A stretch of 64,000 nucleotides of DNA. It comes from Candidatus Versatilivorator sp. (GTDB lineage Bacteria > Acidobacteriota > Terriglobia > Versatilivoradales > Versatilivoraceae). Of this stretch, positions 34,849-46,770 are shown piece after piece. The notes beneath the pieces were generated by a model. The model saw nothing but the letters and a program-made list of their open reading frames with translations. It was not told the DNA's origin and ran no database searches. Location: NCBI GenBank assembly GCA_965207735.1, contig OZ242296.1, positions 1,664,001-1,728,000 of the forward strand, in the 5' to 3' direction. The translations under genes were made by a program, and so were the position numbers. Position 1 is the stretch's first letter; every line of letters starts with the position of its first letter.

Positions 34849-36335
34849 GAGCCTTTTGCAAAATTCGGAATCGGGCATGACATTGGGCTGGCAACAGTGA
34901 TGTTCCGGCGGTGACTACCCAGCTGCAAAGACCCTTTTGAAGGAAAAAGCCCGAATCTGATGGCCGGATGGCCAGCGGTCGCCGGACGCAGGCACAGCTT
35001 ACCCTCTCCCGGCCTTGAGGCGGGCGAACCTGCTGTGCGGTTGGGGGTGGCAACCCGGTCTTCAGAGCGTCAGGCGCATCAACTGATCCACCGTCAGGGC
35101 CAGAATGCCGAACATCAGGTGGCACCTCACCTTGTCGGGGCCGCGAACCCTCACCTGCCTCCCGCCAAACTCCTCCTTGAGCCGTCCGTTGACCCGCTCC
35201 ACCGTCGAGCGTTCCCGGTAGCGCCGCGCCTCGGGAGTCACTTGGCCGATACAGCGCCGGGCCAGTGCCTCCCGCTTCCGCTCGGCTTTCAAGGTAGCTC
35301 TTCGGCGGGGGTTGACGTCAATAATCGGCACATGCCCCAGCTTCTCACTGAAGGCCCGGATCTCCGGCGCATCGTAGGCGCTGTCCATCAAGTCGTAGAG
35401 ACTCTCGACCCGCCTTGCCGTCAGCGTCGCCAGCGGAATGGCTGCCTGAGAGTCATGCACCGAGGCCGAGGTCAGCAGACAACTGACCGGAATCCCGCCG
35501 TCAATGGCGTCGAGGTGTAGCTTGTAGCCGGTCCAGCTCTCCTGATGCCCCTTGGCGTTGCGCTTGACGCCGATGTCGCAGGCCTTGGGCAACTCCTTCA
35601 ACATTTCCTCCAGCGTCATCGACCCCTGCCGCTCCAGCCGGCTCAACCGCTTGGGCCGTCGCTCGCCCTTCGGCGGCCGGCCCCGCCGGCGTTTCCGCTT
35701 GGCCTCCGGCGCAGCCTTGGCCGCTGGCTTTTCCCGTCCCGCAATCGCCGTCGAGTCCCTCGACACATGCCCCGCCAAGTGGCCCTTCAGCGTCTCCTCC
35801 AGCAATGCCTCGTGCAAACGCCCCGGCAGGTCGCTCTCAGCGAATTCCGCAAAGGCCCGCGAGAAGGTCGACTCGCTCGGTACCTCCCACGCCCTCTCCC
35901 AGCCGCACAGCCGCCGCAGCCTCCCCTCACTCCTCAGCCGCTCCACCAATCCCCGCGTGGTCGCCACCTCCAGCATCGACTTCGCCAGATAGGCTCGCGC
36001 CAGCACTGCCCGATCCTCCAGCGGCCGGCCACGCCAGCCCCGACTGTAAGGCAGCAACTCCTCCACCCGCACCAACTCCAATACCTGCACCAGCCGCTGG
36101 TAACGCTCTCCCAGAGGCCCCAAAACTTCCTCCAGCAGGGGAAACAGCTCTCGTTGAAACCGGAACCAGTGTCGTGATAGGGTTTCCCTAAGGGGCAAGT
36201 TCCACCTCCGTTCATCATGTGGTTCAGACACCTTCATGATACAACAGACAGTGGTCTTGCCCCTCCTTCCACCTGCCCTCCTTGATCTTTCCCCACGTGA
36301 AAATTCCCGCTATCTGCGAATTTTGCAAAAGGCTC
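34849..36335 (-). mobile_element. 1487-bp insertion sequence, copy 2
   Basis: Same 19-bp IRs as copy 1; 4-bp target duplication ACAT; offset exactly 13120 bp from copy 1. Confidence 0.95.
35062..36237 (-). CDS. DDE transposase (protein identical to copy 1)
   Basis: 391-aa translation is identical to 21942..23117. Confidence 0.95.
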   Translation of the reverse strand: MKVSEPHDERRWNLPLRETLSRHWFRFQRELFPLLEEVLGPLGERYQRLVQVLELVRVEELLPYSRGWRGRPLEDRAVLARAYLAKSMLEVATTRGLVERLRSEGRLRRLCGWERAWEVPSESTFSRAFAEFAESDLPGRLHEALLEETLKGHLAGHVSRDSTAIAGREKPAAKAAPEAKRKRRRGRPPKGERRPKRLSRLERQGSMTLEEMLKELPKACDIGVKRNAKGHQESWTGYKLHLDAIDGGIPVSCLLTSASVHDSQAAIPLATLTARRVESLYDLMDSAYDAPEIRAFSEKLGHVPIIDVNPRRRATLKAERKREALARRCIGQVTPEARRYRERSTVERVNGRLKEEFGGRQVRVRGPDKVRCHLMFGILALTVDQLMRLTL

Positions 36336-37146: not shown

Positions 37147-37476
37147 TCACCGAACATCACTCGCGAGTCGCGCGCTCACCAGACGGTTGAGGCTCACGCC
37201 CTCTTCCACGGCCCGTGTGGCAAGGGCCCGGTGGGTTTCCGGCGGCACGCGCACCATGAACTTCCCGCTGTAGGCGCGGTCAGCGATTGGCTCAGGAGGT
37301 GCTTCCCCATTTTTTTTCATGTCAGCGAGACAGTCGCGCACAAGCCGCTGTATGCCGGCCAAAGCCATGTTGGGAGTAGATGCCAGCCAGCTTAGAGATG
37401 GGAACTCAGCGCATAGCCCCACATGCTGGTTGTCTTCGGCGGACCAAGTGATACGGTAGGTGTAATGGTCACTCAT
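37147..37476 (-). CDS. hicB: HicB antitoxin with C-terminal RHH domain
   Basis: YTYRITWSAED..HVGLCAEFPSLSWLA...YSGKFMVRVPPETHRALA..A.EEGVSLNRLV. Confidence 0.9.
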   Translation of the reverse strand: MSDHYTYRITWSAEDNQHVGLCAEFPSLSWLASTPNMALAGIQRLVRDCLADMKKNGEAPPEPIADRAYSGKFMVRVPPETHRALATRAVEEGVSLNRLVSARLASDVR

Positions 37477-37721
37477 TTCCTGTCCTCCAATTTCTCAATT
37501 GCCTTAATGACCTGGCGGACTTGATAGGGTTTAGCCATGCCCTTGGCGTTTTGGATGTTGACTCTGGGGTCGGCTGGCCACGGGGTCCGGTAGATCCTAT
37601 GGCTGGCGCCCTTTTGGCGCGGCTCCCCGAAGTATGCCTCACACACTTTGGCCAGATCCGTGAACCGAACACCTTTCGGGTTGTTGCGGAGCGCCTTGAG
37701 GATTGCCGCCGTGCTTGCCAT
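37473..37721 (-). CDS. hicA: HicA-family toxin
   Basis: NPKGVRFTDLAKVC..YFGEPRQKGASHRIYRTPW..DPRVNIQ..KGMAKPYQVRQV; ATGA overlap with hicB. Confidence 0.88.
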   Translation of the reverse strand: MASTAAILKALRNNPKGVRFTDLAKVCEAYFGEPRQKGASHRIYRTPWPADPRVNIQNAKGMAKPYQVRQVIKAIEKLEDRK

Positions 37722-37728
37722 GGGAATA

Positions 37729-37757
37729 ACATTATCAATATTGATACCAACTATCAA
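37729..37757 (-). promoter_or_regulatory. hicAB promoter with three TTGATA/TATCAA operator half-sites; probably leaderless
   Basis: TTGATA-17 nt-TAATGT, then 7 nt to the ATG at 37721. Perfect palindrome TATCAATATTGATA at 37733-37746. Confidence 0.6.
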
Positions 37758-44454: not shown

Positions 44455-44484
44455 ACCATACCGCTCGGGCCTCGCCATTGTCAA
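44455..44484 (-). promoter_or_regulatory. Putative sigma70 promoter of the PPC-DUF1549-DUF1501 operon
   Basis: TTGACA-18 nt-TATGGT on the minus strand, about 60 nt upstream of ATG 44393. Confidence 0.55.
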
Positions 44485-44650
44485 TTTTCGGCTGGTCCGG
44501 GTTGGCCAGCTTGAGAATGAGGCCAATCTCCGTGCTTTTCCAGTTAGGTGGTTCGCTATCTGACAGGATCTCGGAATCTCTCCACACGAGTGCTTTCCGT
44601 TATGGCTCATTCCGAGCTTGGACAACACACTTAACCCCGGCTCCAATCTC

Positions 44651-44679
44651 TTGACTAAAGACGTCCAGACGTCCATGGT
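44651..44679 (+). promoter_or_regulatory. Putative methyltransferase promoter with two GACGTC sites in the spacer
   Basis: TTGACT-aaaGACGTCcaGACGTC (17 nt)-CATGGT, 10 nt before ATG 44690. Confidence 0.55.
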
Positions 44680-44689
44680 GCTGGTTGAG

Positions 44690-45907
44690 ATGACGGAGAG
44701 GCAACCCAGATACGCTCCCGGACGTGTGAGAGACGGAATTCTGCAGGTCATGTCGTTCACGTCCAAGGCTCTCTCCGTCAAGGAGATCGGAGAACGAGTG
44801 TCTGAGGTCGTGGGACCAACCAAGGAGTCTTCCGTTCGATCCTATCTCAGGCTGAATACTCCCAGGCTGTTCATACGAGAGGAACGGGGCGTTTACAAGC
44901 TGCAATCATCCATGGCATTGGGCATCCAGCGTGGACTGCCGCTGGCGGGAGAGTCCAGGGCGCCGCTATCGTTCGGACGGGCAAGACTTTATCACGGGGA
45001 CTGTTTCGACTGGCTTGGGCAACGGGAAGACAGCAGCATTCACGCCGTTGTGACCGATCCTCCCTATGGCCTTCATGAGTACACCCGGGAACAACAAGCC
45101 AAACTCCGGCAAGGCAAGGGAGGGGTGTGGCGCATTCCTCCTTCATTCGACGGCCATCTTCGATCCCCCGTTCCGAGATTTACGACGCTAACCAAGGAAC
45201 AACTCACCTATATCGGGAATTTTTTCTTCGTTTGGACCCGCCTTTTTCTTCCGAAATTGGTTCCGGGTGCTCATGTGGTCGTGGCCTCTAATCCGCTGGT
45301 GTCCTACCTGGTGTCAGCTGCGCTTGCGGAAGCTGGGCTGGAGCGGCGTGGAGAAATCGTGAGGTTAACCATGACCATGAGGGGTGGGGACCGTCCCAAG
45401 GCTGCTCACGACGAGTTTTCCGATGTCAGTGTGATGCCGCGTTCGATGTGGGAACCCTGGGTCGTGTACCGGAAACCCCTGGAGGGAAGAGTTCAGGACA
45501 ATCTGAGAAAATGGAAGACAGGCGGTTTTCGCCGGCCAAGCCACGAGAAGCCGTTCGGGGACGTGATCGCTTCGTCGCCAACCGGAACGAGCGAACGCAA
45601 GTTGGCGCCGCATCCGAGCCTCAAGCCTCAATCCTTTCTTCGGACTCTGGTAGGCGCTGTGTTGCCACTGAGAGAAGGCACTATTCTTGATCCGTTCGCA
45701 GGCTCAGGATCAACCTTGGCGGCCGCCGAAGCTGTCGGTCATACATGCATCGGCGTGGAAATGGACGATCTCTATTTCAGGATGGCTGCCGATGCCATTC
45801 CCAAGTTGGTTCGCTACTCCCCCAAACTAGGCGGCACGGCGGGTCACGTGGTAGAGTGCTCCGCACCACGAGGACCATGCCCCGAGGCAAACGGAGATGA
45901 AGGATGA
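44690..45907 (+). CDS. Orphan beta-class N6-A/N4-C DNA methyltransferase with N-terminal winged-HTH
   Basis: LYHGDC, VVTDPPYG, HPSLKPQ, ILDPFAGSGSTL, CIGVE (catalytic motif before SAM motif, beta order). N-terminal ~70 aa ALSVKEI..SSVRSYL..RGVYKL. Start could also be 44675. Confidence 0.9.
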   Translation: MTERQPRYAPGRVRDGILQVMSFTSKALSVKEIGERVSEVVGPTKESSVRSYLRLNTPRLFIREERGVYKLQSSMALGIQRGLPLAGESRAPLSFGRARLYHGDCFDWLGQREDSSIHAVVTDPPYGLHEYTREQQAKLRQGKGGVWRIPPSFDGHLRSPVPRFTTLTKEQLTYIGNFFFVWTRLFLPKLVPGAHVVVASNPLVSYLVSAALAEAGLERRGEIVRLTMTMRGGDRPKAAHDEFSDVSVMPRSMWEPWVVYRKPLEGRVQDNLRKWKTGGFRRPSHEKPFGDVIASSPTGTSERKLAPHPSLKPQSFLRTLVGAVLPLREGTILDPFAGSGSTLAAAEAVGHTCIGVEMDDLYFRMAADAIPKLVRYSPKLGGTAGHVVECSAPRGPCPEANGDEG

Positions 45908-46770
45908 CTTCCACCCGCTGGCATCATTTGGGGATTGTTGCTGCATTGGCAGTGACACTGATTGGTCTGTTCTCGACCGTCCACTCCCTCTCGGCTCAAG
46001 AGGAATTCGATGCCAACAGGGTGTGCAAGGAATTGCCGGAACACGAGCAGTTGACCGAGATCCTCAAGAGGGTCGTCAAGGATCCCTTGGGGAACGGCGG
46101 ACTGGGCAACGACCTGTGGGCTACCATCGTCAACCGGGACGGCGTGGTCTGCGCGGTCACGTTTTCCGGCGAAGACCGCGGCAGCCAGTGGCCGGGAAGC
46201 CGGGTGATCTCGGCTCGGAAAGCCACTACCGCCAATGCCTTCAGCCTTCCCAAGGGAGCCGGAGGAGCCCTGCCGGGCCTGGCGCTGTCGACGGCCAACC
46301 TCTATGCTGCCGTGCAGCCGGGAGGCAGTTTCTTCGGGCTCCAGTTCAGCCTCCCGGTCGATCCCCGGGTCGCCCATCGCGGCAACCCCAAGAACCATGG
46401 TGAGCCCAAGGACCCGATGGTTGGACGAAGAGTGGGGGGGATCGACGCCACCGGAGGGGGCCTGGGCCTCTATGACAGTCAGGGTGATCTCCTGGGCGCC
46501 CTGGGGGTAAGCGGCGACACCTCCTGCACCGATCACGTGGTGGCCTGGAAGGTGCGGGACGCCCTGGCTCTGGACCACGTACCGGTCGGCATCAGCCCGA
46601 CCGGAGACGACAACATCATCTTTGACATGAAGACCGATCCCGCCAGAGGCCTGGCGGTGAGCCAGGGAGGGTTCGGTCACCCCCATGATTGCGCGGGGTC
46701 GGAAGTCCGGGAAATCGCCCGGGAACTCCCTCAATCGCATCCGATCGGCGCCAACCCCAAGAACCCTTAG
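45904..46770 (+). CDS. Secreted GlcG/HbpS-like heme-binding protein
   Basis: Signal peptide; WATIVNRDG, SRVISARKATTANAFS, GGGLGLYD, LGALGVSGDTSCTDH. Confidence 0.8.
   Translation: MTSTRWHHLGIVAALAVTLIGLFSTVHSLSAQEEFDANRVCKELPEHEQLTEILKRVVKDPLGNGGLGNDLWATIVNRDGVVCAVTFSGEDRGSQWPGSRVISARKATTANAFSLPKGAGGALPGLALSTANLYAAVQPGGSFFGLQFSLPVDPRVAHRGNPKNHGEPKDPMVGRRVGGIDATGGGLGLYDSQGDLLGALGVSGDTSCTDHVVAWKVRDALALDHVPVGISPTGDDNIIFDMKTDPARGLAVSQGGFGHPHDCAGSEVREIARELPQSHPIGANPKNP

Follow-up and report, generated by a model that had tools for sequence, protein, structure and literature searches.

How an incoming restriction–modification (R-M) system expresses its methylase first and then lowers that expression is a long-standing question. 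Four solutions to this timing problem are described in PMC12707154: C proteins, fused repressors, promoter methylation and antisense RNA. The question is raised by one locus in the window, the 64,000-nt stretch of DNA analysed here, in which an orphan methyltransferase carries an N-terminal winged helix-turn-helix (wHTH) and has two GACGTC sites in its promoter. What do these sites do, and what reads them? Our overall reading, which we consider evenly balanced, is that the enzyme is the surviving methylase of a Type II R-M pair, that its wHTH likely represses its own promoter via the GACGTC boxes, and that these boxes are probably its methylation sites. The locus contained the following features.

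44651–44656, + strand: -35 hexamer TTGACT of the predicted methyltransferase promoter; TTGAC or TTGCC is kept at the same offset in homologs
44660–44665, + strand: GACGTC box 1, conserved in homologs; predicted to be one half of the operator and likely a site of methylation
44668–44673, + strand: GACGTC box 2, 8 bp after box 1
44674–44679, + strand: -10 hexamer CATGGT, which keeps A2 and T6
44690–45907, + strand: wHTH-fused beta-class amino-methyltransferase (P0001), 405 aa; homologs begin at the same Met
44717–44902, + strand: winged-helix domain (residues 10–71), predicted with three helices and a two-strand wing (AF2 pLDDT 81)
45038–45790, + strand: N6/N4 methyltransferase domain (PF01555) with DPPY and DPFAGSGS intact
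45819–45830, + strand: C run with an extra base, deletion junction (45825/45826) and out-of-frame TAG
45831–45907, + strand: read-through tail over former intergenic DNA, ending in an ATGA overlap; incidental
45904–46770, + strand: HbpS-like gene (haem-binding family), a native downstream neighbour outside the system

The promoter was arranged in the order TTGACT, aaa, box 1, ca, box 2, CATGGT and 10 nt to the ATG at 44690, with both boxes inside the 17-nt spacer. The two tandem, spacer-filling sites claimed in the initial annotation were confirmed at 44660 and 44668. That annotation had also called the promoter canonical, which held for the 17-nt spacing but not for the -10: CATGGT matched the consensus at three of six positions and was weaker than the CATAAT of close relatives. 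Because of this -10, the promoter was not called by the consensus scanner in the window. Upstream in-frame starts (TTG 44618, TTG 44651, ATG 44675) were rejected, as all lie in the promoter and homology begins at 44690. The annotated start of P0106 lies inside its promoter, making its first residues translated boxes, and other database entries of about 400 aa may be similarly extended. On the − strand of the window, a promoter-like TTGACA-18-TATGGT (44455–44484; 10 of 12 matches) was a candidate promoter of a divergent PPC-domain gene. GACGTC was not enriched in the window (25 sites versus 20.1 expected). The genome contained 1378 sites and a single pair spaced by 8 bp, the promoter pair, where 0.36 were expected; one such pair per genome is not improbable in itself. 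The case therefore rests on the position of the pair, for which the chance per 40-nt upstream window is ~2e-6, and on its conservation.

The protein was a beta-class amino-methyltransferase with an additional N-terminal wHTH, as had been recognized from the sequence at the outset. DPPY (residues 123–126) preceded DPFAGSGS (334–341), and motif IV lay before the target-recognition region and this region before motif I, the order characteristic of beta-class amino (m6A/m4C) DNA methyltransferases. PF01555 scored above its cut-off, with further matches to CcrM, RsrI and MboIIA. The best PADLOC model was PDLC03215 (1e-100, 331 positions), followed at a distance by a second model (2e-22). The family was large and close-knit among its best members: the 120 best of 8000 scored homologs were 73–96% identical, and the target-recognition region was conserved throughout the family. 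The fold of residues 10–71 was predicted with AF2 from an alignment of 50 family members. The model resembled the winged helices of Rok, Fur, Z-alpha and IclR (best Foldseek E 0.002; Z up to 9.6), a predicted common fold that says nothing on function. HARE-HTH (PF05066) gave weak matches in 23 of the 50 members at E ≤ 1 (best 6.8e-5) and none in P0001.

The absence of an adjacent restriction gene, also claimed initially, was confirmed and extended. A convergent gene for a nuclease of ~200 aa was matched in full length at 51 of 80 homolog loci and as fragments at 17, with no match at 12. This nuclease had an invariant PD...ExK motif and no convincing family match in PADLOC, Pfam or NCBIfam; its predicted structure (pLDDT 92) was closest to NaeI (Z 9.5, rmsd 3.7, 142 aligned), then to SwaI, BglI and EcoRV. 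The window locus was syntenic with L018 and L006, both of which retain the nuclease gene; 847 and 837 bp of these loci, respectively, were missing from the window at 45825/45826, and by this comparison the nuclease gene was lost through a deletion of ~850 bp. Neither partner nuclease family was found by tblastn or profile searches in the 100% complete, one-contig genome; tblastn did match the relatives' loci, and the profile searches were run without a positive control genome. A Type II R-M pair has a linked endonuclease, which the window copy lacks. By sequence comparison, we regard the family as R-M and the window copy as its orphan; to lose the nuclease and keep the methylase is an ordinary, well-known fate.

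At the deletion, one extra C in the run at 45819–45823 puts the TAG at 45828–45830 out of frame and adds about 25 residues to the C-terminus. The read-through to the ATGA overlap noticed initially is therefore real and due to this base. Translational coupling through the ATGA was rejected, since the overlap is absent in L016 and L017 and is a product of the extra base. Contigs from runs X1 and X2 matched 44600–46000 with 0 differences (one sample, possibly the source of the window and not independent), and a contig in run X3 was without the extra C.

The methylase tree broadly matched the trees of both flanks, which argues for vertical inheritance of the cassette in this genus. Among 13 same-genus genomes, the cassette was full-length in eight, frameshifted in one (G001) and truncated in one (G005). 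Of the eight loci from the closest relatives that have a full methylase, two retained an intact nuclease, four had fragments of it and two had lost it. L016, the sister of the window copy (support 100), shares the nuclease loss, and dN/dS between the two methylases was 0.13; selection therefore likely continued after the loss. On the branch of the window copy itself there were about eight amino-acid and 19 silent changes. The copy departed from the consensus at seven of 237 conserved columns (median, three), and L186F, R299G and K358M arose on its own branch. With these changes, the weak -10 and the frameshifted end, the window copy may be decaying. Judged from the sequences, the orphan has likely remained under purifying selection and is probably still active as a methylase, at a lower level given the weakened -10. 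A dispersed repeat of 70–180 bp, present in many copies in the genome, lay just upstream of the promoter at L016:4758–4935 and L018:4831–4944, and not in the window. Elsewhere in the window, two adjacent small ORFs (37147–37757, − strand; 94 and 109 aa) had the appearance of a HicA/HicB-type toxin–antitoxin pair, and a 391-aa ORF (35062–36237, − strand) that of an insertion-sequence transposase.

Paired GACGTC upstream of homologs had been set beforehand as a check, and the family passed it. We compared 80 genome loci (L016–L095), whose titles span Acidobacteriota, Chloroflexota, Planctomycetota, Verrucomicrobiota, Nitrospirota, Pseudomonadota, Desulfobacterota and others. The N-terminus and sufficient upstream DNA were present at 76, leaving out L039, L059 and L095 (no N-terminal match) and L087 (contig end). 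An exact pair preceded 72 of these 76 full-length homologs, and the remaining four had one perfect box and one box with one or two mismatches (AACGTY in L046, L048 and L066; GACGAT in L060). The -35 and -10 were conserved as well, the latter often TATAAT-like. The start codon mostly followed the -10 by 7–11 nt, which predicts an mRNA with little or no leader. The boxes were always separated by 2 nt, mostly a flexible YR step (of 94 tabulated pairs, 71 had CA, TG or TA and 15 had CC). By alignment, the boxes hardly change across more than ten phyla, whereas the 2-nt spacer does. L090 had three boxes in 8-bp register, and an extra single GACGTC lay upstream of the pair in L096 (22 bp), L104 (54 bp) and L105 (102 bp).

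The boxes went with the wHTH and not with the methylase as such. Among genomes drawn evenly, the pair preceded 8/8 methylases with and 0/14 without a wHTH in Acidobacteriota, 7/7 and 0/7 in Planctomycetota, and 24/24 and 0/6 in Chloroflexota. The wHTH-bearing counts of the latter two phyla include the centre genome, and the Chloroflexota counts cover 30 of 48 matches, the other 18 all being without an N-terminal match. Pooled, the pair was present at 39/39 wHTH-bearing and 0/27 wHTH-less loci examined, a contrast that rests on few independent events because the two kinds of methylase mostly form separate clades. In L099, L100, L101 and L202, the wHTH was encoded by a separate small ORF and the pair lay before that ORF. 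The L202 methylase was sister to those of the wHTH-less L201 and L203 (support 100) and lay well outside the main wHTH clade, and L202 appears to be a second association of wHTH and boxes with a methylase. In its wHTH-less relative L203, a single GACGTC with TAAGAT behind it stood 77 nt upstream of the methylase match, possibly a decayed pair. Inside the wHTH clade, L059 had lost the wHTH in frame and its box 2 read GATGTC. L156, an orphan with wHTH, is a counter-example with only one box. L105 additionally contained a second, free-standing wHTH gene (L105:2093–2299, − strand), divergent from the wHTH-methylase and with a single GACGTC just upstream.

In a proteobacterial subgroup (L096, L104, L105, L107–L109), box 1 overlapped the -35 (TTGACG) and lay outside the spacer, a shift of about 7 bp in the register of the boxes versus the -35. 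A fixed box-to-box spacing with a shifting promoter register would be expected for a cooperative repressor and not for reading by RNA polymerase. Since the boxes follow the separate wHTH gene and shift relative to the -35, the wHTH is the likely reader. The paired-box layout is how a widespread R-M pair normally arranges its control region, and no orphan peculiarity. The family is common: among 400 genomes drawn per phylum, wHTH-bearing copies occurred in 8 of Acidobacteriota, 6 of Planctomycetota and at least 23 of Chloroflexota (centre genomes excluded). In Pseudomonadota the count was one of 400 genomes, with two further weak matches (E 0.003–0.007). Across 21 plasmid records, viral contigs and the 400 Pseudomonadota genomes, the wHTH was met only with this methylase family. 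A reverse scan of viral contigs for TTGAC-N3-5-pair gave 13 loci, two of which precede a wHTH-methylase; the motif alone is therefore not diagnostic in a large collection.

Other regulators accompanied the wHTH-less relatives. An XRE/C-protein-like HTH was fused N-terminally in L127, with a similar match at L200, and L102, whose methylase is wHTH-less, had a separate XRE/C-protein-like controller (L102:4165–4386) before its nuclease. These were the only relatives with XRE-type controllers, and the L102 controller as a query gave no match at the window locus or in L016–L095. The methylase family thus seems to swap regulators.

GACGTC is quite probably the target of the enzyme, judged from family relationships. 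M.AatII makes Gm6ACGTC, as given in PMC3287169, where the M.AatII plasmid has 3750 bp and the Dam plasmid 3592 bp. With the primer differences of the same source and 837 bp for dam, these sizes yield 331 aa for M.AatII, the length of PDLC03215. This model carries no enzyme name and is the first MTase_II accession in PADLOC. PDLC03399, a nuclease model, is not the first REase_II accession, so alphabetical order supports the methylase assignment alone. The match of PDLC03215 to M.AatII rests on profile length and accession order, and 50–60% identity does not fix specificity.

Further support came from the nucleases. AatII and ZraI share the target GACGTC, and ZraI is a blunt cutter, like NaeI, SwaI and EcoRV among the closest folds of the 200-aa nuclease. 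In L105–L110, the same wHTH-methylase and pair stood beside a different nuclease, which in L105 matched PDLC03399 (345 positions, 1e-89), the length of R.AatII, which we take to be 345 aa. SacI-family tags were found on six of the 120 listed homologs of the L105 nuclease. Among 13 metagenome loci with a PDLC03399-type nuclease, wHTH and pair were present in all five that include the methylase 5′ end. In the tree, the L105-type methylases fell at two separate points within the group that accompanies the 200-aa nuclease, at 70–82% identity; a single methylase specificity therefore probably covers both nucleases. A SacI/AatII-like nuclease and an unrelated one of a blunt-cutter fold would mirror AatII and ZraI. 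The AatII-like specificity suggested in the initial annotation gains indirect support from the 331-position profile and from the AatII-like nuclease swapped in by relatives. No match named M.AatII or R.AatII was among the best 120 listed homologs of either the L102 or the L105 query, and the terminal peptides derived from the M.AatII primers were not found in the proteins from the homolog searches. Blow et al. 2016 list one validated m6A GACGTC enzyme, M.Lsp6406III. GACGTC was not notably avoided in the genome (ratio 0.89, rank 25 of 64) or in the flanks of 51 intact-nuclease loci (ratio 0.83, rank 24), and site avoidance is uninformative as a specificity test. CAGCTG was strongly avoided in the genome (727 seen versus 1902 expected, ratio 0.38) and in pooled homolog-locus flanks (0.44 and 0.34). 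The intact system was also present on small mobilizable plasmids (about 2–5 kb) of Klebsiella, Citrobacter and Raoultella (L096, H4–H17), its nuclease annotated as a hypothetical protein; the plasmid-type cassette was found in no E. coli genome at blastn sensitivity.

The anatomy of the locus, its deletion, the conserved state of the boxes and the way they accompany the wHTH are observed. The following mechanism is proposed. In a naive host, the boxes would be unmethylated and the near-leaderless promoter would allow methylase to be made at once. As methylase accumulates, the genome and the boxes would become Gm6ACGTC. Two wHTH domains would then bind the methylated boxes cooperatively at their 8-bp spacing, cover the spacer and shut the methylase gene, so that output would follow the methylation state. 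Repression of the methylase promoter by the wHTH, acting at the paired boxes, is very probable. If the boxes are the target, they are methylated in an established host and the repressor must therefore tolerate m6A; with an intact nuclease, they must be methylated or permanently shielded. A preference of the wHTH for methylated boxes is the least supported step, which we infer at about an even call or slightly better. Such a preference would give clean feedback, with the promoter open in a naive host and shut once protection is complete, and it would explain why the operator equals the target. Known m6A-reading winged-helix domains use ApT geometry (PMC11037411), which is absent from Gm6ACGTC; a different m6A readout would therefore be needed. 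The complete proposal, a portable repressor of ~70 aa reading N6-methyladenine on two tandem copies of its methylase's target, is tentative and falls somewhat short of an even call.

The wHTH might instead be blind to methylation. GACGTC would still be the target, and the domain would bind the boxes equally with or without m6A and report only the amount of protein, following the logic of SsoII and Ecl18kI, perhaps with unmethylated sites in the genome titrating the fused enzyme, in the manner of EcoRII. All co-occurrence evidence fits such autorepression equally well, and catalysis-insensitive repression by a fused HTH is known (PMC12707154). It leaves unexplained, however, why the operator consists of two copies of exactly the predicted target and hardly varies across more than ten phyla, and a wHTH encoded by its own gene cannot be titrated through the catalytic domain; we consider it unlikely, though a serious candidate. 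It is improbable that GACGTC is the operator of the wHTH only and that a different sequence is methylated and cut. The missing avoidance of GACGTC and the usual 200-aa nuclease without a convincing PADLOC, Pfam or NCBIfam family would suit this idea, but the sole strong profile has the length of M.AatII, near-identical methylases protect against a second, AatII-like nuclease, and the target-recognition region is conserved across the family.

The initial annotation had left open whether the HTH or RNA polymerase reads the methylated sites. Reading by the polymerase, as in CfrBI and AhdI, would leave the wHTH another role, such as aiding the enzyme's DNA binding. Box 2 abuts the -10 in most promoters, and in AhdI and CfrBI a methylated -10 or -35 reduces transcription (PMC2275141 and PMC12707154); such reading could also add to repression by the wHTH. 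It is nevertheless disfavoured, and as the main explanation highly improbable, as same-family wHTH-less methylases have no boxes (0/27), the spacing between boxes is fixed while their promoter register shifts by ~7 bp versus the -35, and the boxes accompany a free-standing wHTH gene, tracking the wHTH and not the methylase. Finally, the family mechanism may be real and the window copy a silent relic with a dead promoter and a decaying protein. The change from CATAAT to CATGGT, the frameshifted end, the substitutions at conserved columns and the frameshifted and truncated same-genus copies are in keeping with such decay. The excess of silent changes and the dN/dS of 0.13, together with intact motifs and boxes and the retained A2 and T6 of the -10, speak against it and make it scarcely probable.

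Should the preferred reading, repression by a wHTH that prefers the methylated boxes, be true, the family would contain a bacterial transcription factor that controls the very enzyme which makes its operator. This would be a feedback switch dedicated to sensing m6A in a context other than GATC, either fused to the methylase or free-standing, in more than ten phyla. As a new m6A reader, the wHTH could also be of use as a small component of synthetic epigenetic switches. The compact layout would allow methylation-dependent repression to be studied with a 70-residue protein and a short oligonucleotide. In addition, the common nuclease of the family, annotated as hypothetical, may be a ZraI-like blunt cutter. 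No description of the promoter layout or of the family was found in the literature searched, REBASE and most subscription papers being outside its coverage.

M.AatII is controlled by a C protein. The methylase of the AatII system is very probably of the same family as the window enzyme (PDLC03215, 1e-100), and the boxes equal the AatII site (PMC3287169). Some relatives of the window methylase pair with an AatII-like nuclease. M.AatII (331 aa by the sizes in PMC3287169), in contrast, is too short for this wHTH. The usual partner of the wHTH-methylase is the 200-aa NaeI/EcoRV-fold nuclease, unrelated to the AatII-like one, and the window copy is an orphan.

In SsoII-type systems, the operator differs from the methylation site, unlike here, where the operator would be two copies of the predicted target. 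SsoII, Ecl18kI, EcoRII and MspI likewise carry an N-terminal DNA-binding domain on the methylase and have an operator over their own promoter, and EcoRII represses only after its substrate sites are methylated (PMC12707154 and PMC3874152). The wHTH-methylase shares with them the fused N-terminal DNA-binding domain; its operator-like pair overlaps its own promoter, is conserved and tracks the wHTH. Its catalytic domain is not m5C: SsoII-type enzymes are m5C methylases with an HTH, whereas the present family combines an amino-methylase with a winged helix that is sometimes a separate gene. It works like the SsoII/EcoRII type and is not a member of it.

CfrBI, AhdI and LlaDII have their own recognition site in the methylase promoter and use it for negative feedback (PMC12707154 and PMC2275141). 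In the accounts of CfrBI and AhdI, this is one site read by RNA polymerase; here there are two sites with a fixed 8-bp spacing that track a DNA-binding domain. The winged-helix fold is shared with the wH domain of DpnI, with wH-fusion Type IV nucleases and with HARE-HTH, and sensing of adenine methylation by a wH domain has precedent (PMC11037411); DpnI itself was not among the 50 listed fold matches of the wHTH domain. The readers covered in PMC11037411 bind fully methylated ApT in Gm6ATC and steer nucleases, and none is described there as a transcription repressor. The present family appears to join a fused repressor and promoter methylation in one 14-bp element and one small domain, as a member of neither class.
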